Assembly (NCBI GenBank): GCA_963514005.1
Contig: OY740816.1
Coordinates: forward strand, 17,980,001-18,044,000
Direction of reading: 5' to 3'
From: Raja brachyura
Taxonomy: Eukaryota
Length of the DNA: 64,000 bases
Below the pieces are notes generated by a model that had not been told where the DNA came from, ran no database searches, and worked only from the letters and a program-made list of their open reading frames with translations. Numbering within the stretch: position 1 is the first letter of the stretch; the number at the start of each line of letters is the position of its first letter. Below, in pieces: positions 7,470 through 61,270 of this stretch. The position numbers were made by a program, and so were the translations under genes.

Positions 7470-7598
7470 GCAAAAATGGACAACCGACAATATGGGGATG
7501 CTCAAGACTTTGCAGCAGATGTTCGGTTGATGTTCTCCAATTGTTACAAATATAATCCTCCTGATCATGAAGTGGTTGCGATGGCAAGAAAACTACAG
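7470..7598 (+). CDS. BRD4: BRD4 exon, bromodomain 2 C-terminal half ([43 protein letters not shown])
   Basis: ttttag|GCA acceptor, CAG|gtttgt donor, 129 bp, phase 0-0; BET BD2 signature [13 protein letters not shown]. Not in ORF track (too short). Confidence 0.97.
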
Positions 7599-10784: not shown

Positions 10785-11212
10785 CAAGGGATGGTGGGAC
10801 TGATGTATGATGAAAGAATGGGTCCACTGGGCTTGTATCCACTGGAATTTGGAAGGATGAGAGGAATTCTCATACTCATAGACACAAAATTCTTTAAGGA
10901 TTGGACAGGCTAGATGCAGGTAAAATGTTCCCGATGTTGGAGTCCAGAACCAGGGGTCACATTTTAAGAATAAGGGGTAGGCCATTTAGGACTGAGATGA
11001 GGAAACATTTCACCCAGAGAGTTGTGAATCTGTGGATCTGATGTTTTCAAGAGAGTGTTAGGTTTAAGAGACTTGGGGCTAAAGGAATCAAGGGATGTGG
11101 GGGAAAAAGCAGGAACTGGGTACTGATTTTAGATGATAAGCCATGATCATATTGAATGGCTGGCTCGACGGGCTGAATGGCCACTCCCGCATCTATTTTT
11201 GTATGTTTCTTT
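10785..11212 (+). mobile_element. CR1/HER1 LINE 3' end nested in the Rex1 LINE
   Basis: Similar to the 951-1381 and 47621-48165 copies (tccagaaccaggggtcac...ccatgatcatattgaatggc). Confidence 0.88.
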
Positions 11213-11786: not shown

Positions 11787-11993
11787 GATGTGTTTGAGAT
11801 GCGTTTTGCAAAAATGCCAGACGAGCCCGTTGAACCAGTTGTTCCATCTCCTCCTCCTGTACCACCTCCAACCAACCAGGTGTCATCCTCATCCTCGAGC
11901 GACAGTAGCAGTGATAGCTCCTCTGACAGTGACAGCAGCACGGACGATTCTGAGGAGGAGCGAGCACAGCGGCTGGCTGAACTTCAAGAACAG
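11787..11993 (+). CDS. BRD4: BRD4 exon, BD2 end plus NPS serine/acidic cluster ([14 protein letters not shown]...[20 protein letters not shown])
   Basis: ttccag|GAT acceptor, CAG|gtactg donor, 207 bp, phase 0-0; inside ORF 11775..12023. Confidence 0.97.
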
Positions 11994-16646: not shown

Positions 16647-16864
16647 TTGAAAGCGGTACATGAGCAGCTGGCTGCCCTTTCCCAACCCCAACTGTCAAAA
16701 CCAAAGAAGAAAGAGAAAGATAAGAAAGAGGAGAAAAAGAAAGAGAAGGAAAAGGACAAAGAAAAAGAGAGGCATAAAAAGAAAGATGATGTGGAAGAAA
16801 AGAAAAAGAGCAAAGCTAAGGAGCAACAGCCAAAAAAATCAAAGAAGAGCAATGCAAATCCCAG
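16647..16864 (+). CDS. BRD4: BRD4 exon, motif B / basic interaction domain ([13 protein letters not shown]...KKKEKDKKE...)
   Basis: atatag|TTG acceptor, CAG|gtaaat donor, 218 bp, phase 0-2. Confidence 0.96.
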
Positions 16865-18145: not shown

Positions 18146-18432
18146 GAACATGAAGAACAACAAACCTGGACCCACGTACGACTCTGAAGAAGAAGATAAA
18201 TGCAAGCCGATGACCTATGAGGAGAAAAGACAGCTGAGTCTGGATATAAACAAACTTCCTGGAGATAAATTGGGGAGAGTAGTTCACATCATTCAATCCC
18301 GTGAACCCTCACTGAGAAACTCAAACCCTGATGAAATTGAAATAGACTTTGAAACTTTAAAACCCTCCACATTGCGAGAACTAGAACGATACGTTACGTC
18401 GTGTTTACGAAAAAAAGGGAGGAAACCTCAAG
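18146..18432 (+). CDS. BRD4: BRD4 exon, extraterminal (ET) domain ([68 protein letters not shown])
   Basis: ttcag|G acceptor, AAG|gtgagt donor, 287 bp, phase 2-1; canonical ET sequence. Confidence 0.98.
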
Positions 18433-21400
18433 GTGAGTTTATCCCTTGCATGGTGAGATGCATGAGAGATGAGCCTTTGGGAACTAATAGCATTTTTCGA
18501 TCAATTTTACACAAAATTACAGAAGCCATTCCTGAAATCAGTAATCCTTCTCTTTACTTAAAATTTTCTGCACTTTCACACCCCACACTATTTCTTGATT
18601 GTAGTGCCCTTTGGGAGCATTTTTTTCCCTTCTAGGCTTTTCCTTATTTTACCTCTGAAAGTCAGCTGTTTGGTGGTTTATAAGAGTGACGTGGGTGATT
18701 GTTTCTTTCCTAAATCTTCAGCTGGAGTCCAGGCCACACTGCTGCAATTCTGCAATGTGTCAACACACTGCATTATTGCCAGGGACTGATTCGTTGAAGC
18801 AATAGCCAGTTTTTTTTTCAGATGAAATATTAACGTACATTAAAAGCCTGGCATTTAACACGTTGGAGATGCGTTTGAGAGAAACGAGCATCTTTTTTTC
18901 CACACTGATAGATTGTAGGGTCACATTAAGCAAGGCTTATGTGACATGTTAGAAGCTAGCAGAAAGGCTGCAATGCTAATTAGAATGGCTTTCTGTACAA
19001 CTTCAGTCTCTTGCTCTGACAATCGGAATTCCGCAAATGAAATGTACTTTTGTTGGTTTTACTTGAATCTTGTTGGATTACTTATTGGAATCCATTAAAA
19101 TGTTGTCCTGGCAGTTCCTCTTGCAAATATATCCCAATGAGATCCCACTTTTGTGACTTAATATGAAGTGTAGGAAACAGGACCATGTGTACGTTGTAGG
19201 TTTTTAATCATGAAACGCTCAGCTTCCTTTCAGCATCTTGTATGGCCAGAATGATGAGGAACTGCAGGTTATTTTTTTATTTTACAGTCATTTTTCTAGC
19301 TGTTGGTTTGATAGGAAACAGAAACAGGAATGCTCTTTGATATTTTCCCCACCCAAGTGTCAATTTGACATTTCCATGCAAATAAAAACATTTTTGATAA
19401 CAAAAATATTTCCTCATTTCCTTTTGCTGTGACATGGTGAATTGTGGCCCTCAATTTGCTTAGTGTCATAGAGATTAAAAAACATTGACTAAGTTACCAT
19501 CTGAATTTTTTTGGTATTGCTACCCAAATTCATCCCCTGTCTGTTTTCCAAAAACCGAAGTCTAGAGAGGATTACAGAAAAAATCAGGTTAATTAATGTT
19601 TTGGTTATCCTGAGGCGGGGCATACAAATTTTACCTTTGAAATCAAATATATTTATTAATAATAGTTTAAAGTACTATTTTTATTCTCAATTAATTTGAT
19701 TAATAAACTAAACTGTTTCTGATTTGAATAACCTAAATTGTTTCTGATTGGAATGATCAAAATCTGTGTAGTGTATAAATCCCTAAAGTACATTAACAGC
19801 AGTAAAGCCATTGTGTCAGAGCTGTAGAATGGGTACCAAGTATTAGATGATCTATTAAAGTTAAAAGTAAAACTGTTTATTAGAATAATCCCACTGTTCT
19901 TTAGGTAGTCTTGGAGGTTAAATCTTATCAGTTGCTCATCTTTTTAAACAAAATATGGGTTGCTGCTTCCCCACCCAACCCCACCCTGGTCAGGCAGTGA
20001 ATTCCAGATCCCCGTTATTAAGGCGTGATTTTTTTTTTTCCCCCTCATCTTCTCTGTCTTGTTAATTAACGAAGTCTGACTGAAGTCATCTTATACGGGT
20101 CAGTTACAGGAGCAAAGAAGAAACATCTTGGAGGGAGAGGAGTGTCTGGCTGATGTCCTCTTGGATAGTTGCACTACATGGCATGATAGAGGTGCAGGAT
20201 GGGAATGTAATTTTTTGGGTTGGGGACTCAAAGTCAAGAACGCAAAAATGAAAATGTTAACAGTTGTGATAGTGATCTTGATGGGCATTATTAGACGGGA
20301 AGAAAAGAAATGCCTGTGGCCCACCTGGATGCACCTATTTATTTTTTCCCGCACCCTCCCCTTCCACCTACATTCCTTCACAGGGATAGGCGATTGAGTC
20401 CAAAGGACTTGTACTCAATCAGGGCCAGTTAACTGTTCACCTTGCTTGCTTGTTAGATAGCGAAGTGCTTTGGTGTTTATTTAGTTTGGAACATGATTTA
20501 CCTCATGAATTAACAGTCTGATGGCATCACTCACCAGGTTTGGAGATGGAATTTGCTGATTTTACAGAAGGCAGCAAATGTAAAATTAAACACCAACCAA
20601 TTTCCATGGGCCTTATGGTTCAACCTGTTCTGTATTTGAGTTACTTTTATGTAGTGTTGTGTTTGGCTTCTGAATTCTTGCATTTTGCTGCAATATTTTC
20701 CCACTGTCTTCGGATCCATGTTTCATGCAGTGGAAAACATTATGGCTCACAAAAGTTAATTTGAAGCTTCCTCTCTGATCCAAAAAGTGACTCTGCAGGA
20801 AGACAATTTACAAGGCCAAATGGACCATCAGTCAGTTCACAATACAATATGTTGTCAATTAACAGTAAACCTCAAATTTTGGAACATTTGAAGATTATTG
20901 GCCCAAAGCCACATTTTTTAAATTTATTTCCCTTTTGAAATATTCCTGGTACACTTGACTGTAAATTTAAGATTTACACATTTTAAACTACCATTCACTT
21001 CTCTTATTTGGTGCTTCTCAAATGGAAGCTTGGTTTGTTAGCTACCCAGGACCAATATTAAACTTGCCTAATCAAATACAGCATACCCATGAATACTGAA
21101 AAATTACATCTACATATTGTTCCCTAACTGCAATATAAGTCAATGCATGGATAATTCACTGAGGGGTCCAAGTGCTCTTGCATCCTCCAGTGAGTTATCC
21201 ACATGTTTCTTAAGAGTACTAATGCTACACTTAGGTTATTTTTATATACTTTTGATTCTAAGGAGCGGACACAGTACAAATTCATTTTGTCTCGTGGTAC
21301 AATCCCACCATATCGAAATAAAAATAAACCAGAGTATAATTTACTCTTTGTCCAAGATGCTAACAAATACATGTCCTTGGATATTTTTATTTGCTGATTG

Positions 21401-21619
21401 TCATTGGAGTTGGTTATATACCATGATATTCTGACCTTCACTATTGTGGGGACAGATGCTATTGCAAATCTACCCATGCTACCAACACTTTTTGTCACTA
21501 CTATTAGCTGACAGACACAATTAAAACGTGCCTTTAATGTAGCTAAATGTACCAGGGCACTTAACAGTAATGTTTTTGTCCTTTTAATGGTGTCGTGGGC
21601 TATATCAATGGTAGTGACC

Positions 21620-21870
21620 AATAAGTAAGTTTATTGGCCAAGTATTCGCATACAAGGGATTTGCCTTGGTGCTCCGCCCACAAGTAACAACATGACATAC
21701 AGTGACAGTTACGAATCACTCAGTAAACGCTAAACATTAATAATAATAAAACATTAATGATAAAACACCATTGATTAGGCATGTGAACCAACAAAATACC
21801 AGATCAAAGGGAGGCTACAGATTTTTGGCTGTTGAATAGAGCAACTACTCGTGGATAAAAACTGATAAAA
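21620..21870 (-). mobile_element. Rex1-type LINE 3' end
   Basis: Closely similar to 44985-45210 (aagtttattggccaag...gccttggtgctccgc...caagtaacaac). Confidence 0.85.
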
Positions 21871-22149
21871 ACAGTGTCTAAGGAACTTACGGGACATTTA
21901 TCGAGGAGGAGAATTATGGAGCATGATGCCAAGATGTCTAAAAGTACAGCTGTCAGTAGAGGTGTTTAAAATAGAGTCCAGAATTGGAGGTCCTGACACC
22001 TTGTTGGGCCCTTGGGAAGAAGAGTGAATCGTCACGGTCAAGGACTTTATAATGAGGGATCTAATGACCAGGATCTCAATAGTTTATAGCATATAAAGTA
22101 TGAGTAAGTTTTGTAGTGATAAGTTCAGTCATGTTTTTGTAAAGTGAAA

Positions 22150-22560
22150 ATAGGAAATCATATTCTGTGAAACTTAAGGATGCAGAGGCATCGGGGTGAA
22201 CTCATGCATTATTTTTCAAAAGGTTAGTATGCCAGCACTCGGTGATTAGAAAAGCTAACAATCTTAATGTTTATTGCGAGGGTTATTGGATACACAAGTA
22301 GAAAGTTCATGCTTCAGTTACATTGGCTATTGGACTACATCTGGAGCACACATACAGCATTAGTAAACTTATGAAATGAAGAATGTTAAGCAGCTGAGAG
22401 AGGTTTATGAGACAAATATTTAAAATGAGGTTTGATAGGCTTGGCTTGCATCTGCTGGAGTTTAGAAGAGTGAGACTTGATTGCAATGTAAAATCCTGAG
22501 GGTTCTTGACCCAGATGGAAGGGCATGTTTCATCATGGGAGAATCTCAAACTCGTGATGA
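22150..22560 (+). mobile_element. degenerate CR1 LINE fragment
   Basis: ctggagtttagaagagtgaga...gggagaatctcaaactcg resembles the CR1 ORF2 3' part seen in younger copies. Confidence 0.6.
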
Positions 22561-24372
22561 TAGCCGATTTCGATGATAGGGATGATACATTGTCAGGAAC
22601 TCGTATGTGGGTCAAACACATTGCATAGATTGACTTGGTTTTATTTGATTATCAAGATATTTGAGATTACCTAATCTCTCAGACTTCGCCCCAGTGTTCT
22701 GGCTTGCTCACATTATACATCAAAATACTGTGATTCTGAGAATAAATATTTAACAAGACCAACCCTTGCCCAATTCAGGTGCAGTTGAACTGACTTTAGT
22801 GAAGTCTTAGCCAGACCCGCAGTGTGATTCTCCAGGTAAGCCATGGCAGATGTACATTTACAGCATTAGGAATGTACATGTTTCCAGACAGTGCTAATTA
22901 TATATACAGTAGGTACTCTTGTCTTTGTGGGCCTATTGTGGGTTTGCTGTATGGGATTAGGTAGAATCAATACATTAATACGTAAAATTGAACACAAATT
23001 TCTCTGCCTGTACATATACGACACCATTTTATTCTTTGTTGCAGAAGCTATTGATATTCAAATTTGTAGGATTTTTGTATGGTGATGGGGGAAAAGGACT
23101 TGCTGTATTAACTTCAAAGAGTAGATAATCTGCTTCAATGTATTTTGATAACTTGGTAGTTGCAAATGAGATAAATAACCAATTAATTCACTGATTCCAG
23201 TGAGGATGAATTTTGATATCATTATTATTGGTAATGTATGATGTTTTCATTACGCACCATGAACAGGCCCTGATTTGGGTGGTTTGTTCTGCATTTTTTT
23301 TGTTGGAAGACATTTGTAATGTTCAGTTTTTATGACAACAATCATCTTCTGTTTACTTTGGATGTGTGATCATTGTTAAATGATCTACACTGTCACAGCA
23401 TCATTGGACTTGTGAATGGGCACACACAGGTTAGGTATTGACATCTTTGGGGCTGCTTAACCTAGAGATCAGAGCAACAGCTGGTTTTCAGAGGTACACT
23501 ATTTTCTTTTTAATCTTGAACCAGATTTGGCTTCTCCAGCTAAATTTATTTTGAATTTGGCAAACATCGTGAATTTCAGTAGTGACGTCATGATATCAAA
23601 GTAAATCTTTATGGGGGACAAATATTGTAGGTAATATTTCTCATAACAAAAAAAATGAGAAAGAAAGTGGTGCACTAAAACACAATTTCTTGGGGTCATA
23701 TAACTCATTATAATGCTAACCATGCTGAAGGAAAAGACTGGATACTTCCACTGTTGCCGTAGCAAATCTCTGGTTGTCATGGCAGCTAGTATATGGTTTG
23801 GGAAAGTTGAGAAACTTTGTTGACCAGTTGCTTCAACCGTTAGCCTTTTACTATGAGTGAAAGTGGTTAAAATGAAATTTAACTTGGTCCAAGTTTGGTT
23901 AAAGTAAAAATTGTTTTTATTCCTCACAATTCATGTGCCTTTTATGGTTATTTTTTTGAAGTTGACTTCTTTATAATCAGTGACCAGGAATATTTTTTAA
24001 CCCTCACTCCCTTTCCCTCTGGTCTGATTATCTGAGCAGCTCTTTGTTTGGTTTGAATGTCTTTGGCAATAAATTGAATTGTGCATTCTATATACTTCAG
24101 TATTTTTTAAAATGTGGTTTATGTTTCACAAAACAAAATTATCATGACCTCGCTACATGCTTCCAAACATTTGCTAAATTCTCTTTTAGATTATTGGCCT
24201 TTTAAGTTGCAAACAATGAATGGATCCTTTTTTTCCTTTAGCTGCTTTTCCTTCCTTCAATTTGCATCTGATCCCATGTGCCAAATTAGAGTCATTTTTA
24301 TTCACTGTGTTGTACCTGTATAATGGTACCAAAGTGTTTGGTCCAAATCTTGTTGTGTGATGCTGTTTGCAG

Positions 24373-24492
24373 TGAAAAAAGTCCCAGGGAAATCGAACGA
24401 TGACCTCCAGCTAGACTCGAAGAGTGAGCTGGATACCAGGTTACATGACGTTAGCGGCCAGCTGAGCACTGGGAAGAAACCAGGCATAAAAG
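24373..24492 (+). CDS. BRD4: BRD4 exon, post-ET coiled-coil-like segment (VKKVPGKSNDDLQLDSKSELDTRLHDVSGQLSTGKKPGIK)
   Basis: tttgcag|TG acceptor, AAG|gttggt donor, 120 bp, phase 1-1, stop-free in the ET frame; aligns with the BRD2/BRD3 motif [32 protein letters not shown]. Confidence 0.88.
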
Positions 24493-25429
24493 GTTGGTGT
24501 AGTGCAACCTTGTGAAGTAGACCCTTAGGTTATCCTAGGTTGGGGCCAAGGTTAAAATAAATTTGTACGTATTTGTAATAGCTTTAATTTTGTGGTGCAC
24601 ATACCTCTCAAACTGCAATGCGTTGATTGGCAGAATTCTGGTTTATGCTTTCAGAGGAATGCGGCTTTTGGTAGCATTTGTAAATTGCCCGATTTTGATT
24701 GGTTTAATTTGGCTGCTATTTCTATGTGTGCAACTTTATATTGCGTCACAGTAATTTTTTTAAAAAGCATACAGTTGAGAGGTATGGTGGTTACTTTCAT
24801 CAGTATTTGTGATTTAATAGATTGAAACGATCTTTTTGTTTAATCTGGATGTGTACTGCAGGAAATCACTGCAACCGCAGGCAGCGGGTAAGATGTGATT
24901 TTTTTCCTTTTTTTTTCCTTTTCGAAGCTTTGCAGCAAATCGAGTTCCACGAGGTCCTGTATTCTGCCTATGATGATAAATCAATTTTAATGCTGCTTCA
25001 TCCAGATCATTATTTCTTGCCATGAATGTAGCATATGAAATTAACAATTATTAAAAATCATAAATTCTGCTGATGGAAAATTGTTTGTATGGAAATGTTT
25101 AACATTAAAACAGGAAGCCAGAGATGCACTGGTAAACGTGGCTCAAAAATGAGTTCTCTCATTTACATTTTCAGACCAGAGCAATGGGATTATAGTTGTA
25201 TTTTCTCCTGTCTTTTCTCTAATTTTGTACACTGAACTCAAGAACTAATAATTTGAGGACTTGATATTAAAATGGATATCAAAGGCACCAATTTAATATA
25301 TGTGGCAGCCATCAATTTGATAACACATACATGTTCCTCTTTCCCCCTACTGTCCCAGAAAGCAAAATTGCGGACAGCGCATTCTTTCTCTTTACCAAAC
25401 CAGTATATATTTGGGTGAAGTTTGTTCTC

Positions 25430-26228
25430 CAGGTTGTTCTGCTACAACACATGTTGTAACTCATAAACTCATATCTCTAATTGGGTATAACATCATTGAA
25501 GAAATAAGGAACATTACTGTATTATGTGGGTCAAATTGGTAATAATGCAATTTTAATCAGAAACAAGGTGACTAATGTCACTTTGGAAATTAACAAGCAG
25601 AGACAAAGCTGTCTTGGTGGGGTGGGTGGGGGGGGGGGGGGGGGGGAGAAATCGAAGGGACAAATACTTTCTATGTAACTGTCCAGTTGTAACCATTGTC
25701 TTGTAAGAACAGAGGCCAGTGGCTTGAGAAATTGACAAGCAAGTTAGGCATACATTGCTGGAGTAACTCAGCAGGACAGGCTGCATCTCTGGATTGAAGG
25801 AGTGGGTGACATTTTGGGTCGAGACCCTTCAGAATGAAGAACGATCTTGACCTGAAACATCAACCCATTCCTTCTATCCATAGATGCTCCCTGTACCGCT
25901 GAGTTACTCCAGCATTTTGTGTCTATCTTCAGTGTAAACCAGCATTTTCAGTTCCTGACTACGAAATTGACAAACAATCGTTTCCATTGACACTTGTGCA
26001 ATGATACTTTATTAAACAATGTTACATACGGCTTTCAGTAACAAAAATAAAATTACAGCTATTAGAAAAACCTTTTTGAAAACTCTGTATGGGGAAAAAT
26101 AACTAATTGTTGGTCCCCAGCCCCAGCTCACTTTTCTCCCCATTAACTCAATAGTTCTTAATAACTCCATTTTCTATAACCCAAGGCTTCTTAGGAACAC
26201 AACTATTGCTTTACAGCAGAACTACCTG
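25430..26228. mobile_element. Tigger/pogo-like MITE interrupted by a Penelope-derived element
   Basis: Termini caggttgttctgctacaac / ttacagcagaactacctg followed by TA; internal sequence shared with the 34035-34570 copy. Confidence 0.7.
25743..25962. mobile_element. Penelope-derived foldback element
   Basis: 15-bp TSD gaaattgacaa(g/a)caa at 25728-25742 and 25963-25977; inverted arms. Confidence 0.85.
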
Positions 26229-26239
26229 TATATGTGGAG

Positions 26240-26620
26240 ATTAAGCACTTATCTATGGTATTAAAGGTGATCTAATTGAAGCATAGAAAACTGTAAAGGA
26301 GGTTGACAGGTTGATGCAAGGATAATGTTTGCATGGCTAGAAATCTGGAACCAAAGATTACAGTTTCAAATTCAGGTGTTGGCCGTTCTGGACTGAAATA
26401 AGAAGACATTTCATCACTGAGGATGAATCTTTGGAATTATTTATCCAAGGAACTTATGAGATTCAGTTGCTATAAATATTCACGTTGATGTCAATATATT
26501 AAGGAAAGTAAATGAAATGGGTTTAATTCCAGAAGCTGACACTGAGGAAAATATTAGCCATGATCACCGTGTTGAGGAAATAGGCTTATGAGCTGAGTGG
26601 CTCATGAATGTTCTTATGTC
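26240..26620 (+). mobile_element. degenerate CR1 LINE 3' end
   Basis: aaggtgatctaattgaagcata...gaatctttggaatt...ttagccatgatc pattern of CR1 3' ends. Confidence 0.65.
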
Positions 26621-27026
26621 ATGTTTGAAGTCTTTGTGATACAAGATGGATTTTGCCTCATCTTTTGATGTTGATAAATTTAAACTTGCATTGAATGGTG
26701 AAACATTTTTCCTCCCTCCCCGCTCTCATTCCAATCTCTCAAATGGTTGGGCATTTCAATGCAAATGACTGGTACCAAGCTACTGAAAGGCCTGACTGAT
26801 TTAATTGTTCCCAGTTATCACTGCTGTGTGGACATGCTCACTTTTGAAGGTTGAGTTTTATCTCTTCTGTAGATAAGAGTGTACAGTTAATGCCAGATTT
26901 GGGCATTCCACACAGCCACATAATCACATCCTTGTTTGTAGAGTATTTGAGAGATCGAGACACTGGTTTCTTACGAAACTGTCTTATACGGACAGCTGCA
27001 ATATTGAGACTCAGTTGCAATGATAT

Positions 27027-27740
27027 TCAAGTCAGAAGTCAAGAGTGTTTTATTATCATATGCACCAAAATGGAACAATGAAATTCTTGCTTGCAGCAGC
27101 AGCAGCACAGTAAGTTTCTAAGCACAGTACTCAATAGATAACATTATAAACAAACATAAAGAAGAAGTTAAAGAAGAAGCTGTATTTGGATCTGGACATT
27201 ACAGTTTGCAGGATCCTGTACCACCTTCCGATGGCAGGAGTGAAATGAGAGCATGGGTAGGGTGGTGTGAGTTCTTGATGATGTTGGCCGCCTTTTTCAG
27301 GCAGCACCTCCAGTAGATCCCTTTGATGGTGGGAAGGTCAGTACCTTTGATGGACTGGGCAGTCAGTATACACCACTTTTATCTCCTTTGTTCCTGAGCA
27401 TTTGAGTTGCCAAACCAGGCTGTGATGCAACCAGTCAATATGTGCTCTACCGTACAGCTGTAGAAATTCAAGAGTGTATTCATCAACGTTCTGAAACTCC
27501 TCCATCTTCTAAGCTAGTTGAGGCATTGATGGGCTTACTTTATGATTGTATCAATGTGCTGTGTCCAGGACAGATATTCAGAGATATGCACACATAGGAA
27601 CTTGAAGTTATTGACCCTCTCCACAAATGTTCATGCATCCTCAGCTGCTTCTTCAAAAGCCAACAATCATTTCCGTAGTTTTACTGATGTTGAGAGCAAG
27701 GTTGTTTTTCTGGTGCCTTTCAGTCAGATGATCAATTTCA
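27027..27740 (-). mobile_element. Rex1-type LINE 3' fragment
   Basis: Reverse complement of the 1550-2350 region (gtcaagagtgttttatt...gatgcaaccagtca...acttgaagttattgaccctctccac). Confidence 0.82.
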
Positions 27741-30264
27741 AGTGATTTTTGGATATCTAATGCACTGGCAACATTTGTCTGTCTTTTTCATTCTGTATAC
27801 TGGAATGCAATAATGAGATGAAACCTGACCACTTTGCAACTGATGCAACACTTCCCACTGAGCACGAAGACACTGAAATGAATTGTACACTCATGGTCTT
27901 GGTTGAAAATGTTGTGGGCCAGAAATTTACTCCTTAAAGAAAACAAGAATTAGTTTTAAATGAAAACCTATACGACTACAATTTCTAGATTTCTTGATGT
28001 TTGTATGGTTCCGACTTGAAGCTGCAACAAAACACTACTTATTTGTTAGACAGCATGCAGTAAGCAGTCTCTCAACCATCAGATCAAATCTTTGCAATCC
28101 AAACACATTTAGTCATGAATGGTGGTGGACAGGAAGATGCTATTGGGATGCAACAACAGCTCATAGTATATCCCCATACTTGACAATGGTGGGCAGCTGG
28201 TACATTAGTGCTGAAGAAGAAGCCAATGCCTTTGCCATTGATAATGATACATTTCATGGTGAAACCTTCACAGAAGACAGTGTTCAATCTATTTGATTCA
28301 CTTCATGTGACATGAAACTCACCGAGAACCCTGGCTATAATATAGGCTGCTGGCTCCATTGTAGAACTGCAGTTGATGAACTGTCTCCAGCCAAGCTGTT
28401 CCAGATGCAACACTGATATCTGCTTGATCATATGGCAAAATGACCACATATACCGTTCACAAAAAGAAATACAATTTTACATTACTGCCTACTCTCAATC
28501 TTTACTTAACAGTGCTGACAATTGGCTGCTGCCCAGTTTTGGTTTTACTTCGGTGACTCCACTCCAAACCATTGATCAAAAGAGCCAGCCACATCAATAA
28601 TGTGGTTATGGGACCAGCTCAGATACGATTATCTTTCAGTGAACTAATCATCTCCTGAAGCCTTATCACAATTCGGGAGTGTGTTGAACTTCTCTCCCTT
28701 TCCTGGATCGGTGGCTGCGCCGTGTGCCATCCACAAATGCACTGCAGTTTCTCATCAGGACCATGAGGAAAGGTCTTCCCAAGCCAAAAACCTCTCGTCA
28801 CCAAGAAGAATAGGAACGTTAGGCATTTGGGACTTTAGCATGTGCAGTTTCCCCTTTGTACTGCACATCATCCAGATTTGGAAGTGTATTGCTATTATTT
28901 CATCATTGCTTGTTCTAAATCCTGGTAGTCATCGTCAACAATGGAGTTCCTTCACAATGCTTGTTCACCACCTCATTTTCAAAGGCATTTTGAGATGTCA
29001 ATAAATCCTGGCCTCTCAAAAAAATAAAAAGGTTTTCCTTTGGGTGTCGTTCCATTCTTGAGCCGAACAATTTTGTATAAGCTTGGATGATGATATGGAT
29101 GCAGCAATTGCCTTTCTGCCCTAAGGCCTTGTGTTTTTTGTGGTGTGGGTAAGTTGGAATGGTTTTGTACTCTAGATCTCATTACAGTTATTCCTACTGA
29201 AACCCAGAAAGCTATAATAATGCTTGGCTGTAATATGTCCAGTGTTGATAAATGTGTTAAATCATGATTATGCTCAAACAATGAGGTTGTGGGTGGAACC
29301 ACACTGTAATGCTACTTTTGAGCTATTGTTATACTTAACAAGTATTTAATTGTAAGTAAAATGGTCTTGTGTGTTTTATGTAAATGAATGGAATGATGCA
29401 AATATTTTTAAAAGTCAGTTATTTAAGAAATACATTAATGTACGAAAGCATAATCCTCCTTGTTCTTTGGTTAAGTTTTCTTGATTACCATGTTGTAAGG
29501 TATCTTATGTGGAAGTGAAGTTTTTCTGGTTGCCGTATTTCTTGTCCCCCCCCGGTGTCTTTGCCTGGCTATAATGAAGGAACATTGTGGTAAGAGACCG
29601 TGTTAATGTGAGTCTCCAGTGCCAGCTGATTGAAAGTGCTTTAGATACATTGTTACTAGCATAGGGTCAGATAACAATGAACAGTTCATTATTTGGAGAT
29701 TTAACTAGAGAATTTGTTCAAGCAATTTCTTAGGGAAGGTAAATTCTACAAAGAATAAAACATCAAAGATTTTTTAAAAAGCACCATCAAAGATTTTGTA
29801 AATGATAGCTAGGAAGAGAAAGCAGGACTCCAATAGTTTAAAGTACATGGGACTATGCCATCATTTTGAGTATCATGATGTATGTTAAATCAATAACCAT
29901 GGGGTAAGGTAAAATCCAAAGTAATAATATAGAAGTAATCTTTGAAAATTCTTCTGTAATATCTTTAAATTAATCAAACAAGTACAGGGATCTGCGCAGT
30001 ACCTGTTCATGTTACTGAATATTCTTCTTAACTCTACTTTTGTCATGACTAAACACAAGTCACACACTGTTTGGAAGGTTTGTGGCAAATCTGCACATAA
30101 ACTAACATTTTGTTCCATTGATCTCCTAACCCCTGCAAATAGAAATGTTGCCATTATGAACAGCTATCTGTTCTCTTAACGTCTTCCGTCTTAATCACTC
30201 ATGATCCTCACCTTGGGAGGAACGTTTTTCTTCCCGACCCCTGCTCTCCTGTCAATAAGTCTCT

Positions 30265-30909
30265 TGTAGACACTAAAATCTGGATTATCTCAGCGGTTCA
30301 GGCATCATCTCTGGAGAGAAGGAATGGGTGAATTTTGGGTCGAGACCCTTCTTCAGACTGATTAGGGATAAGGGAAACGAGAGATATAGACGGTGATGTG
30401 GAGTGATAAAAAACAATGAATGAAAGATATGCAAAAAAAGTAAAGATAAAAAGGAAACAGCATCTAGCCTCACTCTGACAATGGCAGAGACAGAGTAAGG
30501 CTAAATGCAAATTGGAGGAACTGCATCTCATATTTCGCTTGGGCAGCAGTGGTATGAATATTGATTTCTTTCATTTCAAGTTGCTCTCTCTCACTATCTC
30601 TTTCTCTTTCTCTTTTTCTCTCTTTCTCTTTCTCTCTCTCCCCCCACCCAAGTAGCACTAGCTTTTCATTTTCACCTTACAAACTTTATCACCGTTACTT
30701 TTTTACATATCTTTCATTCATTGTTCTTTATCTCTCCACATCACAGTCTATATCTCTCGTTTCCCTTATACCTAACCAGTCTGAAGGAGGGTCTCAACCC
30801 GAAATGTCACCCATTCCTTCTCTCTAGAGATGCTGCCTGTCCTGCTGAGTTACTCCACATTTTTGTGTCTATCTTTGGTTTAAAGCAGCATTTGCAGTTC
30901 ATTTTTACA
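30265..30909 (+). mobile_element. 5'-truncated Penelope-like element: inverted pLTR, GIY-YIG ORF tail, pLTR
   Basis: 12-bp TSD caataagtctct at 30253-30264 and 30910-30921; 30491-30580 translates QSKAKCKLEELHLIFRLGS/SGMNIDF, like the Penelope endonuclease C-terminus; about 200-bp inverted arms. Confidence 0.85.
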
Positions 30910-31299
30910 CAATAAGTCTCTCAAAGTCTGCCTTACATGCATTTTAAGTTTGGACTAGCTGTATTTAACCATTAACTTGCCTTGCTTCATTTGGGCCACT
31001 GCTATTTAGTTCAGATGTAGTAGTTGCTGAAAATGACAGTTGACAATAGTTGCAACAGGTTGTACATTTCAAGCCATTAATTTTCATTGTTTAGCAATGT
31101 TCTGCATCTGTGACATGTGTAGAGTCTGACATGGGAAATGGATAGATAAAAAGCAGGAGTCCAGTTGCTGTGTTTTTCACAACGCATTAATCAATGTGGA
31201 GCAAGAATTTGTGTCATTGTTGCTTTGAGATTAGTTTTGGGGTGCTAATTATGGCCAGGTATGATTATCCTATAATCATTGGGACAAGTAGAAGAACGT

Positions 31300-31441
31300 G
31301 GGCGACACGGTGGCTACTGCCTTACAACGCCAGAGACCCGGGTTCGATCCTGACTATGGCCGCTTGTCTGTACAGAGTTTGTATGTTCTCCACGTGACCT
31401 GCGTGGGTTTTCGCCGAGATCTTCAGTTTCCTCCCACACTC
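31300..31441 (+). mobile_element. HE1-like V-SINE, 5' half
   Basis: gacccgggttcgatcc B-box and V-domain gtttgtatgttctccacgtgacctgcgtgggttt. Confidence 0.85.
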
Positions 31442-32296
31442 GTACCATAGAAAAGTATACACCCTGGTCAGTACACAAAAGTAAATGCTCATTAATATTT
31501 GCTCCTGCACAAATCCTCATCTATGAATGTTTCACCAGCAAAAATCTATGTCTCTTGTGAAGAAGAAATGAACTGCCGGCTAATGAACTTTGCCTGAAGT
31601 TACTTTTGAGACAGCAAATAATTCATAGCTTATCTAGGTTGAAGGACAAATTTGTGAATTCCATGAATTGCCAGCACTACCTTATCAGAGTATGTTATTG
31701 ATGAGTATTGCCTTGTCTGTAACTGTAACCTGATATTTGGGCCTATGCCTTATTTGCATCTAGCAGTCATTTATGCTTATACTGTGCTCACGTAGATTCA
31801 AGGACAATTTCTGGCCTGTTTAAGTTTATAACATGATAGCAATAAATGGAGACAATGTTCTTTATGTTCCACTGTTCACTTCAATGTGAGTGGGTGCAGT
31901 AATGGAATGATCAGAGTCCTGAATCCTGTTACATTAAGCAATAAATGACATGAACTGTCTCCGAGAAAAGTTATGTTTGGAAGCTATAGGACAAAATACC
32001 AGGCTATTTCCAGTGATGTCCACCATTTAACCTGCCTATTATCTACTCGCCTCTTGATTTCAGACCCATATATTACTTAAATTTTGTATATAAATCTATA
32101 ATTCAAGAAAATTAACGAGATTAAATAAAGACAACTTCAGATGGTGAATAATTATTTTGCCAGAGCTACGCAGCACGTGCACAAACTGTGGTGCAACTGT
32201 GTGAACTACTGACGTTTTAAATCATTTTTTTCACACATACATTAACCTCTAGCCATTTTACTATTATTTCATCTGAATCGGAAATGTTTAGCTCCT

Positions 32297-32332
<36 letters not shown>

Positions 32333-32503
32333 GATAAGGAAATGGCAAATTAATTCAGCAAATATTTTGACGTCATGGACATGAAAAATCTTCCAGAAAT
32401 ATTGTGGGTCCAATGCAAATGAGGAACTAAAATAAATGAGTATAGAAATTTACAGATGGAGTTAATATGCCTGAAAATGAATAATATATACAAATTATAT
32501 ATA

Positions 32504-32566
32504 CAGTGCCGTCCATAATATTTGGGACAAAGATCCATCTATTTATTTGCCTCTGTACTCCACAAT
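32504..32566 (+). mobile_element. Tc1/mariner terminal inverted repeat fragment
   Basis: TA followed by cagtgccgtccataatatttgggaca, a typical Tc1-type terminus; no partner end seen. Confidence 0.6.
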
Positions 32567-32585
32567 GTCTTGAAATATCTAGTAT

Positions 32586-32898
32586 AGATTTAGTTTAGAG
32601 ATACAGCGCGGAAACGGGCCCTTCAGCTTACTGAGTCCGCACCAACACCGAGTCCAATCCCCGCACATTAACACTATCCTACACACACTAGTGACAATTT
32701 ACACTTATATCAGCTAATTAACCCACAAACCTGTACGTCTTTGGAGTGTAGCAGGAAACCAAAGATCTCGGAGAAAACCAACGCGGTCACGGGGAGAACG
32801 TACAGACTCCTACAGACAGCACCCGTAGGCGGGATCGAACCCGGGTCTCCGTCGCTGCAAGTGCTGTAAAGCAGCAACTCTACCGCTGTGCCACTGTG
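32586..32898 (-). mobile_element. HE1-like V-SINE, near full length
   Basis: Reverse complement of the 50320-50630 copy. Confidence 0.88.
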
Positions 32899-33431
32899 AT
32901 TGATGTGATTTGGGCATTTGCATTTTTGGAAGGCTTCTGATTTCCACTCAAGGGGTTGGTGGAAAAGGTTTGAGCACATGGAATTGGGAGTAATAGACTA
33001 GCTTGAATTCAGAGTTGGACAGCGAAAAACACAGTGGGTATAAATTGTTCCCTTTCATTGAGTGCCATGGGAATTGGAGCTTTGGTCCCAAATTTCCACA
33101 ATTGTTATTGACACTTTAGCCAAGGGGACAAAATGTAACGTTTCTAATGACACTAAATAGTGTGGATGTGAGGTGCTGAGGATGTGAAGAAGTGATAGAG
33201 TTAAGTGATTATCTGTTTTGGTAGAAAAATCAGAAATGCTGAATTTTTAAAGCAATCAAAGGGACTTGGATATCCTTGTAAACCGAAAGCACAGAATCCC
33301 CTTCCAAATTATTTTCATGGATGTGGTTTACGAGCTGGTGTAAACAAAATAATAAACTAATTCTATTAAGCAATAATATGAACTTGTTGGAGGGACTGGG
33401 AGCTCTCCTGCTTTCTTAATCTTTACTCAAA

Positions 33432-33528
33432 GGTAGACACAAAATGCTGGGTTAACTCAGCGGGTCAGACTGCATCTCTGCAGAGAAGGAATGGAGTGAC
33501 GTTTCAGGTCGAGACTCTCTTCAGACCG
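33432..33528 (-). mobile_element. Penelope-derived pLTR single arm
   Basis: Minus strand reads ggtCTGAAGAgagtctcgacctGAAACGTCactcc. Confidence 0.8.
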
Positions 33529-34034
33529 ATTCATATTAATGTAACAGTTGACTAATCTTTATTCATATTAATGTAACAATTGTTAGTTATTGTGGAATGT
33601 GTGTGAAATGAATAAAAAATGTATTTGTCAAAATTGCAAAGCAAACTAAATTAAGTGGGAAGGTATGTCAAAATAACTTTATACTCTAAGTAATTAAGTA
33701 TGATGGCTGCGTTAAAGTAGGAGCTCATCGTCGCTTTATATTGAGTGAAGACATTTGGGTTGATTCAATCACACTTGATTGCCCTAAATGAATGCTCATG
33801 AAGCTGCTGGAATATCAAGACTCATAAGTTGCTGTCTTGGACTTGGGTAGTGCGTTGCTAAAATCATTCTGATTCAAAGCATGAAAATAAATTGCAATGT
33901 GTCCTGTCCGTAAATATAATTCTCAGTGTTTAACCTTGACCTCACGAGGACGATTCAAAAGCACTCTACAATGATTGAATCCAATAAGCCCGGAATTTGA
34001 ACTTGTGCTTAAATTAATAACTTTAATGTGAATG

Positions 34035-34570
34035 CAGGTCGTTCTGCTATAACGCGTGTTTCATCCACTCAGTGGATGGAACACAATTGATGAGTTGGGG
34101 AACATTTAGTTTTATACAGGCTGAATTTGTTATATGATTTGTATGGGGAACTAGAGAACCACTTAAAAAGTTACTTTGGAAATTGACAAGCAGAAAAAGA
34201 AAGCCCCTTTGGGGAAAATAAAAACAGTCGGGTGTTTCCAAATAACTTCCCTGCAATAATCAGATGCCGTTGTGTCTTAAGAACAGTCTGCAAGTTTCAC
34301 CTCAGATACCCATTGAAATTGACAAATAATCCTATGATATTGAAATCCATTGAAATTGACATTGTGTGATACTTTAATATTATCAATATTCAATATTCAA
34401 AATATTTTCAGTATTAAAAAGTCCCTCATTTGTAACTTGGTTATTGTGAATCTAAGATGCTCTTGCCCCAGACCCTCCTTTCTCCATTGTCAACATTGTT
34501 TTAAAAACGTGATTTTCTGTGACACGAGATTTCATTCGAACGCAATTATCACATTGCAGCAGAACTGAGT
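34035..34570. mobile_element. Tigger/pogo-like MITE
   Basis: Termini caggtcgttctgctataacgcg / acattgcagcagaactgagta; same family as 25430-26228. Confidence 0.68.
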
Positions 34571-34946
34571 ACTATTCCGTGTGAGGTCTTCTCTACTTGG
34601 AATGACTTCATTGTTTTGCTGTCCCTTTTTTACTGACCCCAAATTTGTAACCTGAAGTGGTGTATTCTGCATTTATTTTTGTTTGCAAAAAGTGAATTTC
34701 CTCAAGTGATAGACCTTGTCATACATCTGTTGTTTCTTTAATTATTATTCTCTATCCACTTATATTAGGAGAAAACTATAAAATTATCAATTGGTTAAAT
34801 ATTTTAGAGTTTCATTCTTTTACACAGAATATGTTTAATTTGGTTGTTATGAAAAGAGTGTTTGTGTAGTGTTCTACAGGGAGAAGTAGCGTTATGAATT
34901 GAGTCCATTTGCTTATAGGTGCCCTGATGGTGGGTTGCAGTAAATT

Positions 34947-34998
34947 GAAGAGGGAGCTTGACCCAAGCTCCCTCTTCCTTGTTCCTGATTGCTTCCAC
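34947..34998 (+). repeat. 42-bp direct repeat copy 1 with a 14-bp foldback arm
   Basis: gaagagggagcttg-acc-caagctccctcttc hairpin (34947-34977); 34957-34998 is identical to 36667-36708. Confidence 0.95.
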
Positions 34999-35305
34999 CT
35001 AATTAACTTGAACAGTCAGAGGTTACCCACTTTAACTTCATTTTGGCTGATTCTTCAAATTGAGTTGAAATGACACTTATTGAACTTGTTTAAAACATTT
35101 TAAGAATAGATTAAGTAAGAATTGTGACTCCTTCCTAATGTATTAATGTACAACATTGTCTTAAGTAGTGCCCATAATTGATAGTAATCAACAAAACCCA
35201 AAGGTAAATTGCAACTTAAAACTGTAGAGAAGCCAGTTAGTTTCAGTATTGATGTTTAGCAGACTACTTAGTCCTGTTACTTACACAATAATTCTCTTTG
35301 TACAG

Positions 35306-35428
35306 CTGAGAAGCATGACGTAAGCATGGATGTGGGAGGCCCTTCAAGGATGAGAAGCAGCAGCAGTTCTTCTGAGTCAGACAGTAGCAGTGACTCCAGC
35401 TCCTCTGAGAGCAACGACTCTGAAACAG
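35306..35428 (+). CDS. BRD4: BRD4 exon, SEED/CPS region ([41 protein letters not shown])
   Basis: ctctttgtacag|CT acceptor, CAG|gttagc donor, 123 bp, phase 1-1; matches human AEKVDV...SSSDSEDSET. Confidence 0.95.
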
Positions 35429-36666
35429 GTTAGCGTCAATTCTTTCAGTAATTGAGCCTGTTGCTAGCCTGGCGCTGGCAAAGTCTGTTTCCCCTCTGCC
35501 CCACGTACTCTCTGTAAACCACCCATCGTAGTTTCCAACCGACAACCAGTGACTTCTAATTATCACTGCAATACATACAGTTTGCCAGATTAATGGAGCT
35601 TTTTACCAGTAGTTCCTTGTGTTAAAAGAACAACATGTCTGGAAGAAATTCTAGAGCTAGTCTGTTTAAGCTGCATAGAAAAAGTGCAATAATGCTGACA
35701 GTGACCATTGAAAGCCATAAAAAGAGCTTAAGTTGCACTTAAATTAGAAAGCAGCTTCAACAGAGAAAATTGTTTTGCTCTTGGAAAAAGCAGGATTGTT
35801 TTTTTTCTACCTCGTCTTTTGAAAGATCGACGTTTGACTACCAGCAAATGAAATTTGCTTCACCTGTCTAAAAAAAAAATGTATGAAGGATTTCTGGTCA
35901 GGACATGCATTTGGAATGCTGTTTACAAAACATGGCGTTCACCTGAGTGCAGTTCGTGTAGCATTTCAGATGGTTGGTGCTAACACAGATCTGCTGTGAA
36001 AGGGGCAGGTTTCAAGATATTCCCCAACTCCATGTGCACTGTGGACTCTTGCGCAGTAAGGTACATGTGCATTGTCTAAATTTGATTATAAAAACAGTGA
36101 GAGGACAGCAAAAGGAGGAGAAAAAACCTGGTGGGCTACAGATCTTTATCCTTTTCAACTGTTACAATTGGCAAAAAATTATCTACATCCTGCATTCTAC
36201 TACTACACCTTCATGGCCGTCGACTCAGTGAGATTTCGCATTTAAAGCAAGTAAGCTATTTAATTATGTACCATTATTTTTTACTATTGTAGAAAACGCC
36301 CGGTTAGTTAGTTGCAAGGCTGTCCCTTAATCTTGGAGCCAGTTATTTCTAACTTATGCTTGTATATTTTCTCTTGCGTCAGTCATAGTTTAAAAATGAT
36401 GGTCTTGTAATTTACCGCCTAGATGTTTCCACTTAACTATAATTTTCAGAAAATACCAGTTGTGCATATATGACCACGTCAGATTTTGTTAATTGTCACT
36501 ACCCATAGCAAAGAGTCATTGCTGAACATTTGAACAAAAATCCTATCATATCCTGTGATCTGCCTATTAAGTTGCACACCATTAAAATATGTTTAATACA
36601 CAGGCTTTCATTCACTCAAGAGTTCTGCCCTGAAGATTGTTTGAGGGCTGCAATTTGACAGGACCC

Positions 36667-36708
36667 CTTGACCCAAGCTCCCTCTTCCTTGTTCCTGATT
36701 GCTTCCAC
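36667..36708 (+). repeat. 42-bp direct repeat copy 2
   Basis: cttgacccaagctccctcttccttgttcctgattgcttccac, identical to 34957-34998. Confidence 0.95.
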
Positions 36709-39700
36709 TGACTGCAGAGGAATTGTCTCCAGTGCTGACTCGTAACCTAGCTAATTTTGAAATGTGGAAAAGTGCAGTCAAGTTTTCTGGAAGCTTGTTT
36801 TCTAGTTTTGTACATCATTTCAAATTTTTCAACTCTTCAATTTTGACCTTCGGAGTTCTTTAGTTGCTCTCCTTTCCCGCTCTCTATCTCCCCCCCCCCC
36901 CACCCATCCAAATGTCATGAAATCAAAGTATTTTTTCCACTGAAATATCAGTAATTGATATTCTGATGAGGGATAACTGAACAAAAGGTTTCTAATTAAC
37001 ATTATGTGCACCTCCAGTTTAGTGGGTAAATTTCATTATGTACATTAGTTGGTCATTCAAGATTCGGTTACAGAACGATTAAGGTGCTCTTGCTGTGTGT
37101 ATTTAATATATCCAAGATAATTGTCAACAGTTTTATTTTTGTAATGTTCATGCGTGTTACGGTATGTATGGTCTTTGGATGCTGTGATTTCTTACACAAA
37201 TGCTATCTTTGAGATGAGTTAATTTTTTTAGTTGTAAGCTGTACCTTTCTACAGATTGAATTGTGTAATAGCCACAGAGTGCAGAGTTTGGAACTGAGAG
37301 GTCAGCCGGCTGCATATTACATTGTTCCTGCTGTGATTATCATATAAGTACAAGATAAAATCTTGTAATGGGGCTGGGTCGTAGATGTGAGGCAATGTAA
37401 ACTGCACAGAGTTGGGAAGTCCAAAAGCTTCCTTCAGAGTTAACACATTGGCTTTAGTAAATACATCTAATCAAAATACAATTCCAAGTATTGAGAAGTA
37501 TTTTTAAATGTACAGGACAGCTCGGTAATATTGCACCATCTGTCTTTATTTTGTGAGAAGGCAATAGCCTAATTTTAGAGAGCTAACATTTTGAGATGTA
37601 GCAAACGCGATTTAAACCAAAACAAAAAGGTTGAAGTATATGGAACCATTTTTTTCAAAGATGTATAAAAATTTGCGAATTGTCTGCCAACAATGGATAT
37701 ATGCCTGTGAAAACTAGTTCAGACACGTGGATTTTGTGTGATTCCTCAAATTTCTACGTTATTGAATTTGGCAATGAAAGTAATATTTCATATTCTTAGA
37801 TATGACGGTCACAAATCTTTTGGACGAAACATTGTCATTAAATTCATATTTCGTGCTTTGCTGTAGCTCGCACTGCTTAAAGTTATCAAGCGTGCGCTCC
37901 TAGATATCCATATTGGATGTTAAGATAATTTGATTACTAGAGGCAGCACAGCATTGCTTGATTGAGTTCATCTCCAATACCCTATTCCCATGTAGATGTG
38001 TGAATTTTCAATCGGATGCTGTAGAAATGCTCGAGACTTGGTCTTCCAATGAGAATTTTGTGATATAATGCCAGCTGTTATATTCTGGTTCAAATCCACT
38101 CATTCACCACAGATTAATATTCAAACCTCAAACCTTTCTACTGTGCCAAGCATTGGTTTCACCTTCAGATTGTTGGGGCCTGATCTCAGTCATCCATGTA
38201 CACATCATATTATGCCGGTGTATTAAGATGTGATCAGATTTTCAATCTAAATGGCCGGCTTTGTACACAACTTAAACACCTATTACAGTTCATATTGTCT
38301 TTACAGTATATTTTACTGTTGAATTTTCAGCAAGGTTTGCAGAGATACAAATTGTGCTTTGGAACTTTGGAATATTTCCTTGCGTTATATGCCACAGGAA
38401 GATTTTACGTTTTAACCTGTTTAGTTGCAATGATGCAGAGAGCATTTGATTTTTGTTCTTCAGATCAGCTCCCACCTTTTGGAAATTTATGGCAACCCCC
38501 ACTGAGTGTGAATTTTCTGCAGTAACGATTTCTTTGTGCATTTTTGTCCAGAGGTTATTGGTGCTCCTATCAGCTTTTGATTCTCCCGAGGCAGAAGAAT
38601 GTATAATGGAGCACAAGTCATTGAGTGAAAGAAGAACAAATGACTTTATTGACATTCAAATTATTTGGGGAGTTGTCACCCATTGTGTGTATTGCATCAC
38701 TTATATTTGTATTAAATTCTTCCAACCACTTGGTGATCTGACACAAAAGGATAAATAGTTTCACCCTTGTCATGCAAGTAAAAATCTTCTCTTACCTGTC
38801 AATAACCTTTCGTGAAATTCTTATGGAAGTGAAGTAATCTACAGTATCACTGTATGTGACTTTGCATCTTTCTTTAATTTATTGAGATTTGTGACAGTAT
38901 TTCAAGTCTGGTGGATTTAATGCACTTGCATCAAACCTCTTTCCACTGAATATTTATCATGATTGCTTTCACCATTGGAAGTTACAATCTCACTTATTTG
39001 TCACTGTAGAAATTGACCAGTATGGAAATATTGGTTCTGTTTTTAAAGGCAGGTGATATTTGAGCCATTCAGAAGTGTTGGTAAATTTGAAGCCACCGTT
39101 TCAGCTCATAAATATTTCAGACTGAACATTTTGAAATTCTTTAACTTTACTCTTTAATTTTTTTTAAAGTGCATTAAAATTTGTACACATGACATGCATG
39201 ATTTTAAACACTGGTGAGACTTGCTTTTTTTAGAAAAAAAGTGTATAAATAAAAATATTTAATCTGCAGGTTTTCAAACCTTGATATTTCTGTCGGGGCA
39301 AATTCTGTGATGGTATGGTTAGTTTTATTGTTGGTATACTTACGCTGGAGGTGTTTTTGACTGTGGGGCTGGACATTTGCCTTTGAAAGAGTCTTGGCCG
39401 CAAGTCTAAAATGCATTTTTTGGAGAAAAGTTAATTATGTGGCAGCCTTATTTTGTAACAAATTGAATTTGCCTATTTTGGAACTAGAATCCTAGCCTTT
39501 TGGATAGGAATTGGTGCTGCAATCGTTTTTAGGATTGGGTTGAATTATTCTGGGAATGGTGCTGTATGGTCTCTGAAAAAGGACCTGATTATTGTGCATT
39601 TGCTACTACAGTTTAATATATCACTTTAAATCTAAATTGACGTGGGATCAAGGATGGTGCCACACTTGCCAGTCTCTCGACCACTTGTCAGTCTGGTGAT

Positions 39701-40771: not shown

Positions 40772-40992
40772 CCCCCTTCTCTCTGTCCACCCCCCCTTCC
40801 CTCTGTCCACCCCCCCCTTCTCTCTGTCCACCCCCCCTTCTCTCTGTCCACCCCCCTTCTCTCTGTCCACCCCCCTTCTCTCTGTCCACCCCCCCCTCTC
40901 TCTGTCCACCCCCCCTTCTCTCTGTCCACCCCCCCTTCTCTCTGTCCACCCCCCCCTTCTCTCTGTCCACCCCCCTTCTCTCTGTCCATCCC
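40772..40992. repeat. pyrimidine-rich minisatellite, about 11 units of about 20 bp (ctctgtcca-Cn-ttct)
   Basis: Directly visible tandem array; produces the spurious ORFs at 40554-41230. Confidence 0.97.
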
Positions 40993-56582: not shown

Positions 56583-56644
56583 AGGTGCCACCTAAAACCA
56601 AACATGGCAGCCACAAGAGTCGCTCTGGACGGGAGCAAAAGAAG
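56583..56644 (+). CDS. BRD4: BRD4 first long-isoform-specific exon (EVPPKTKHGSHKSRSGREQKK)
   Basis: tcttctgcag|AG acceptor, AAG|gtagga donor, 62 bp, phase 1-0; matches human EMAPKSKKKGHPGREQKK. Confidence 0.92.
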
Positions 56645-58982: not shown

Positions 58983-59223
58983 CAACATCACCACCACCAT
59001 CAGCTTCCACAGCCGATGAAGCAATCACCTCCACAGTTTGTACCTACTCCCCTTCCAATCATGGAGCCACAGATATTGACCAATGCCTATGATGCCATGC
59101 CGCACTTTGGACAACCCATGATGCACCTTCCTCACCAAAGCGAGCTGCAGACGCATTTGCCGCCACCACCCGAACAGCATTCGCCCCCTCACCTCACCCA
59201 GCATTCGGTGGTGTCTCCACCAG
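58983..59223 (+). CDS. BRD4: BRD4 exon, His-tract / Pro-rich IDR (QHHHHHQLPQPMKQSPPQF...HLTQHSVVSPP)
   Basis: ttctctgcag|CAA acceptor, CAG|gtgtgt donor, 241 bp, phase 0-1. Confidence 0.95.
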
Positions 59224-60676: not shown

Positions 60677-61270
60677 CCTTGCACAGTAGTTTGCCTCAAC
60701 AGCCATCCAGACCCAGTGGTAAAGCGGCACCATTACCTCCCAAACAGCCTCGTCCTCTTGCACAGTCCCCGCCCATGGTCCCACAGCCTATATTACAGCC
60801 CCCACAGATGACTCAGCCGCCAGCTATTCTAGAAGAGGAAGAACTACCATCTCATCTCTCGATCCCCCTACATACTTCTCAGGTGCACCTGTATCTGCAG
60901 CAGCTCCAAAAGGCCCAGAGTCACACCCCGCTTCTCTCAACGGTCCAGACTGCGTCCCTGCCACAGCCTCTGCCCCTGCCCCAGACGATCCTCAGCCAAC
61001 CCCAGGTATCTCACGCACAGCCCCAACCTCCACCCCACATTCAGGCTGTGCCACATCCCCAGCCTCAGCCTCTTTCCCAACAGCAGGTACAACAGCAGCA
61101 GCAGCAGCAGCAGCAACAGCCGAGGCCACTTCACATGCAGCCCATGCAGTTTCCACCACACATCCAGCACCCGCAGCCTCCCCACCAACCTCCCCCGCAG
61201 GCGAAACCCCAGCAAGTCATTCAGCATCACCACTCCCCACGGCAGCCAAAACCTGATCCCTACTCCACAG
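60677..61270 (+). CDS. BRD4: BRD4 exon, large Pro/Gln-rich IDR ([14 protein letters not shown]...[20 protein letters not shown])
   Basis: ttttttag|CC acceptor, CAG|gtaagg donor, 594 bp, phase 1-1; includes a Q10 tract at 61090-61119. Confidence 0.96.

Follow-up and report, generated by a model that had tools for sequence, protein, structure and literature searches.

The BRD4 gene of the skate Raja brachyura carries, directly after the exon for its ET domain, the helix exon that is found in the other BET genes, and in our judgement this ancestral exon is probably, in the BRD4 of skates and their relatives, a regulated cassette encoding a weakened, BRD2-like docking helix. The reviews PMC11939847 and PMC8446420 describe the corresponding coiled coil (CC) as absent from BRD4, and as giving short BRD4 a BRD2-like activity. 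These reviews use the post-ET helix to set BRD2, BRD3 and BRDT apart from BRD4; skate BRD4 carries that very exon, and may show how BRD4 diverged from BRD2. Our literature search returned no report of a post-ET exon in any BRD4; Werner et al. 2020 and the preprint supplements could show BRD4 of fishes or sharks.

The gene in the window (the whole stretch of 64,000 nucleotides analysed here) is BRD4. Searches using tblastn with gecko and newt BRD4 recovered the end of bromodomain 2, which is the one part of the bromodomains that falls within the window, followed by motif B, ET, SEED, His/Pro-rich and Pro/Gln-rich exons (Table 1), and the C-terminal P-TEFb motif follows some 5 kb downstream of the window (L009:5366-5431; 90-95% identity). 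In a tree of ET domains (79 columns, 23 rows), the window sequence and seven bony-vertebrate BRD4 proteins formed a clade of eight rows (support 99/96), with the window sequence as sister to the other seven (96/85). The assignment rests on the proline-rich exon at 60677-61270, the C-terminal motif past the window and this placement of the ET domain; BRD2, BRD3 or BRDT was rejected as the identity of the gene. Three other BET copies are present in the same genome: over the columns of the tree, C25 did not differ from skate BRD2, nor C35 from sawshark BRD3, and the C10 copy was taken as BRDT by elimination. The exons of C25 also match skate BRD2 proteins at 93-100%, which suggests a skate or a near relative as the source organism.

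Table 1. Exons of skate BRD4 and a splice-site region in the window, with the evidence for each.
Feature	Position	Strand	Evidence
Exon for the last part of bromodomain 2, limits approximate	7470..7598	+	86% identity in tblastn (gecko and newt BRD4)
BRD4 exon, end of bromodomain 2 (BD2), Ser/Asp-rich stretch and start of motif B	11787..11993	+	tblastn with gecko and newt BRD4
Exon for motif B and the basic region	16647..16864	+	tblastn with gecko and newt BRD4
BRD4 ET-domain exon, phase 1 end	18146..18432	+	ET tree, run contigs
3' splice site region ahead of the post-ET exon, rich in UG and poor in pyrimidines	24330..24372	+	TG count, pyrimidine fraction
Helix ("coiled-coil") exon after ET (main finding), 120 bp, phase 1-1	24373..24492	+	sequence, genome search, sequencing-run contigs
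SEED (Ser/Glu/Asp-rich) exon	35306..35428	+	run contigs, reading frame
Next long-isoform exon	56583..56644	+	match to loose contig ends at 35428, 2 mismatches
BRD4 His/Pro-rich exon	58983..59223	+	tblastn
BRD4-type proline/glutamine-rich exon	60677..61270	+	tblastn, 50-51% identical to the gecko and newt proteins, E about 1e-46

The post-ET exon begins 5,940 nt from the end of the ET exon, with the acceptor TTTGCAG/TGAAAA at 24373 and the donor AAAG/GTTGGT at 24492. It is open in the frame that enters from the ET exon (phase 1 end, 18432), encodes 40 amino acids and re-enters frame at 35306, so that the description of a stop-free, AG/GT-bounded, phase 1-1 exon in the earlier note agreed with ours in coordinates, splice sites, length, phase and translation. 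A search of the skate's own 2.7-Gb genome with a 39-residue peptide gave exactly four places: the exon itself and one for each other ET exon, the three paralogous matches each lying just downstream of their own ET exon (E 1.6e-4 to 2.6e-3). These four places, together with the GT..AG joint described below, put the exon beyond chance. Its splice signals are poor. The acceptor region has nine TG in 40 nt, a count made post hoc, after the UG-richness had been spotted (40-nt tiles of 18500-35200 have a mean of 3.3 and a maximum of 8), and a pyrimidine fraction of 0.6; the donor is off consensus at +3 and +4; and the exon has nine GAR triplets versus 14 in each paralogous exon. A UG-rich, pyrimidine-poor acceptor, an off-consensus donor and few GAR triplets fit a weak, regulated exon.

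No annotated BRD4 protein from a shark, ray or skate was recovered. An ET query against the protein collection returned skate BRD2 and a single intron read-through fragment of the ET exon of a skate-type BRD4. The 40-residue peptide and a 50-residue proline-rich piece each gave four candidates and no match in that collection, which weighs little; none of ten genomic ORFs was present on exact look-up, and in the ESM Atlas the nearest clusters were unnamed short proteins, with a recognition value under the useful range.

The peptide is 50% identical to the post-ET exon of each of the three other BET genes of the skate. These exons confirm that BRD2, BRD3 and BRDT carry the segment after their ET exons; they measure 120 bp in BRD2, 120 bp in BRDT and 129 bp in BRD3, and all are phase 1-1. 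In both length and phase, the window exon thus equals the BRD2 and BRDT copies of the skate. As in the ETCC of BRD2, BRD3 and BRDT (the post-ET coiled-coil module of Werner et al. 2020, as presented in PMC11939847 and PMC8446420), it is a separate phase 1-1 exon at the same site, right after the ET exon. Among the proteins retrieved, the post-ET motif also occurs in 104, as 53 distinct segments, with sources ranging over arthropods, a hemichordate, a hagfish and vertebrate BRD2 and BRD3. The size, phase and place of the paralogous exons and the motif in invertebrate and hagfish BET proteins indicate that the exon, as had been proposed, is ancestral, and that its symmetric phase is so too. The phase that the earlier note singled out as making the exon skippable is real, but it is no peculiarity of BRD4, since the paralogous exons share it.

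By contrast with the skate gene, human BRD4 and the other bony-vertebrate BRD4 proteins sampled are without the post-ET helix segment, while having ET, SEED, proline-rich and C-terminal motif exons in common with skate BRD4. The absence from human BRD4, claimed beforehand, was borne out by human BRD4 isoform C (PDB 36iu chain K), in which ET joins the SEED region directly, and the motif was found in none of 28 bony-vertebrate BRD4-type proteins, a sample drawn outside gar, bichir, sturgeon, coelacanth, lungfish and chimaera. Three of the 28 are poor witnesses (one intron read-through and two with inserted non-exon letters); in the other 25, ET is followed directly by SEED, and 11 named species are among them: horse, yak, mole rat, gecko (three isoforms), agama, newt (seven isoforms), frog (two), cutthroat eel, brook trout, huchen and icefish. 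The absence is read from protein models, from which a loss of the exon from the genomes does not follow. The simplest reading is one loss on the bony-fish stem, and a natural BRD4 with the exon dates the loss, at least for the species sampled, after the split of sharks and bony fishes.

Five to seven of seven sampled exon words were present in 20 of the 24 sequencing runs listed (11 studies, nine coded organisms). The runs had been picked through the exon's own words, which biases them to species where the exon is conserved. We examined contigs from four of the 20 runs (X1, X5, X8 and X10), one for each of organisms A-D, and in all four the GT..AG joint 18432-24373, proposed earlier as a check, connects ET to the post-ET exon. 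In X8 and X10 a single contig runs through ET, the post-ET exon, SEED and then sequence matching the long-isoform exon at 56583, and in X5 the depth of 179 is equal on ET, post-ET and SEED exons, with unique intron bins at about 2-14. No run is on record as RNA: the run type is a guess, and X5 is labelled "probably DNA". The contigs nevertheless bridge exons at GT..AG sites, and such splicing in all four organisms, together with the lack of a processed copy in the skate's own genome, points to RNA. Given this strong inclusion, automated skate gene models likely include the exon.

The DNA of the exon is tightly constrained. In X8, the most distant run, 30 of 288 positions of the ET exon depart from the window sequence, as do 2 of 120 in the post-ET exon and 2 of 125 in SEED; at the ET rate, 12.5 differences would be expected in the post-ET exon (Fisher p=0.002). 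The ET pieces of X10 had 7 differences in 86 and 4 in 50, versus 2/120 for the post-ET exon and 2/125 for SEED, and for X1 and X5 the comparison gave 3 and 6 differences versus 0. Of the 22 ET differences listed for X8, 21 are synonymous. The SEED exon is of low complexity, yet it is conserved like the post-ET exon in both X8 and X10, a hint of RNA-level constraint at the decision point between the short and long isoforms.

Because SEED is equally conserved, what is under constraint may be the whole region or RNA signals rather than the peptide, and the main alternative to our reading takes this up: the exon would be kept for RNA-level or spacing reasons, as an element of splicing control near the choice between short and long isoforms or as a linker that joins ET with SEED, while the encoded peptide would have ceased to bind the partners of BRD2. 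We regard this as a possible but distinctly less probable account. It is favoured by the constraint on near-silent sites in both exons, by the synonymous nature of the ET differences, by the UG-rich acceptor and by what the peptide has lost. Out of 18 columns that are at least 70% conserved in the 53 segments, 11 are kept and seven lost, all of the latter charged or polar (K>N, E>D three times, K>S, K>T and Q>H), and six of the seven replacement residues are unseen in any of the 53 segments, so that the window peptide may no longer bind anything. The core has two K+R versus 5-6, and the mean helix cost is 0.47 versus 0.36 +/- 0.02, a level reached by none of the 53 distinct homologous segments. 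The E/K-rich N-terminal half of ETCC is lacking, and so, by prediction, is its full-length helix. Against the alternative stand the exact frame and length of the exon and the retention of all four residues of the hydrophobic face together with R, D, G and Q, which a free linker would not need.

The stripe L20, L24, V27, L31 is intact, with R23, D26, G29 and Q30, and the hydrophobic face and the RL.DV.GQL motif are present; several of the kept columns (L, R, L, D, V, G, Q, L) had anchored the cutting of the homologous segments. The drift of charged positions around preserved leucines and DVSGQL that the earlier note described was confirmed. AlphaFold2 in single-sequence mode, which on short peptides is weak evidence, predicted a helix at residues 16-32 (17 residues, mean pLDDT 68) in the window peptide and at 9-31 (23 residues, pLDDT 84) in the BRD2 copy. 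Since the stripe spans under two heptads, the peptide would fit a "docking helix" better than a long coiled coil. It also has new S-x-x-acidic motifs, S16-K-S-E and S18-E-L-D, which could be read as an N-cap or as CK2 sites.

Whether the exon is ever left out bears on a second alternative, in which it is essentially constitutive and the pattern in X1 has some other origin, such as a rare splicing error, an artefact of assembly or an unrecognized exon. In X1, the ET contig ends at 18432, the SEED contig begins 3 nt upstream of 35306, and a cassette contig of 177 nt consists of 30 nt of ET, the 120-nt exon and 27 nt of SEED. A simulation of inclusion plus skipping with k=31, a value assumed from the word length, reproduced every contig measure of X1, whereas inclusion plus unspliced RNA gave 178 nt, 28 nt and 2 nt, unlike X1. 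Four independent measures fit skipping to the base, and the depth of 55 on the inclusion arm versus 102 just after it, a crude figure, is a hint of substantial skipping in that sample. Under one filter, the interval from ET to SEED contained no further candidate for a stop-free phase 1-1 exon with AAG at its end, and depth at 22400-22500 and 26230-26480 was rejected as exonic because the sequence there is repeat-like. On the other side, the contigs of X5, X8 and X10 have no break at the exon, so that skipping is minor or filtered in those runs, and the skip joint 18432-35306 is absent among the joints listed; this absence says nothing either way, since the cassette-to-SEED joint, known from the contigs, is absent there too. 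We consider constitutive splicing quite unlikely. The exon preserves the frame and its included form is expressed, as in a cassette exon, and the geometry of the contigs in one of the four runs makes it likely that some transcripts skip it; the earlier suggestion of a cassette accordingly gains from X1, its direct joint not being among those listed.

Two further readings were rejected as highly improbable. The proposal of a pseudo-exon in mid-decay, free of selection, could draw on the charge drift, the low number of GAR triplets (9 versus 14) and the weakness of both donor and acceptor, but it is ruled out by the difference rates, differences being roughly sixfold rarer in this exon than in ET (2/120 versus 30/288, p=0.002), and is further opposed by inclusion in all four runs and near word-for-word retention in the nine coded organisms. 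Loss from BRD4 before the jawed-vertebrate split followed by regain from a paralog has nothing specific in its favour and is scarcely credible given the equal distance (50%) from all three paralogous exons, the native position, size and phase, and the sister relationship of the window ET domain to bony-vertebrate BRD4.

On our preferred reading of a regulated cassette with a weakened helix, partial skipping, as the contig geometry of one run suggests, would give two BRD4 forms, the skipped one having the ET-to-SEED join of human and other sampled bony-vertebrate BRD4. In the included form, the first two turns of the helix are predicted to be gone, with S16-K-S-E as a new possible N-cap ahead of the intact L20/L24/V27/L31 face. 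From the work on BRD2, this face may aid the ET domain in binding factors of initiation or elongation (TFIID, PAF), more weakly than in BRD2. In the preprint of Zheng et al. (bioRxiv 10.1101/2025.09.20.676678), a BRD2 fragment with the homologous helix binds TFIID, the fragment deleted in BRD2 comprising both this helix and the sequence after it, and the authors hypothesize that BRD4 lost a TFIID-linked initiation function after gaining P-TEFb binding. Skate BRD4 differs in that the helix exon and the C-terminal motif occur together in one gene. Invertebrate long BET proteins of the Fs(1)h type likewise combine the two in one protein; unlike skate BRD4, they keep the E/K-rich consensus of the helix. 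Compared with ETCC, the window copy shares the L..RL.DV.GQL face and a predicted helix, but sits in BRD4, has D/N/S/T in its once charged N-terminal half, has a helix predicted to be about two turns shorter, and is likely skippable.

After the vertebrate duplications, the BRD4 copy may have shed charge and become optional; cartilaginous fishes would then have frozen an optional, charge-poor exon that bony vertebrates dropped, a plausible route from charge loss through optional splicing to deletion. As a naturally occurring mutant, the skate exon could serve to map the face of the helix that binds partners. A bolder version, which we put forward tentatively and hold to be rather doubtful, is that splicing switches the BRD4 of cartilaginous fishes between a form with a working BRD2-like docking helix for initiation factors and a mammal-like form without the helix. 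If true, it would be a living intermediate in the division of labour between BRD2 and BRD4, and the seven substitutions would map the helix residues that partners need.

Several minor observations were made along the way. Read-through of the SEED exon into the intron meets a stop after one codon (ETG-stop), a 1,495-nt contig of X5 extends from 35399 into the intron at a depth of 22 (179 for the spliced form; X1 has a depth of 8 there), and an ATTAAA lies at 36581; the region 35429-36900 possibly yields a short BRD4 isoform through intronic polyadenylation. Among insects, the long BET proteins of psyllids (Cacopsylla, Diaphorina) are without the post-ET helix and that of aphids is shortened (P0219, P0229, P0257-P0259), apparently through independent loss or erosion. 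A basking-shark BET protein labelled BRD3-like, probably BRDT (P0244), has the C-terminal motif and is without the helix segment though the C10 copy of the skate has the exon, reflecting either skipping or a model error. The introns contain broken LINE-type reverse-transcriptase fragments and many short interspersed repeats (690-2170, 10200-11000, 45290-46400 and 47630-47800), all ordinary, and tandem simple repeats resembling proline-coding sequence in the BRD4 and BRD3 introns (40700-41030 and L012:3050-4500) yield spurious matches to the proline-rich tail of BRD4.
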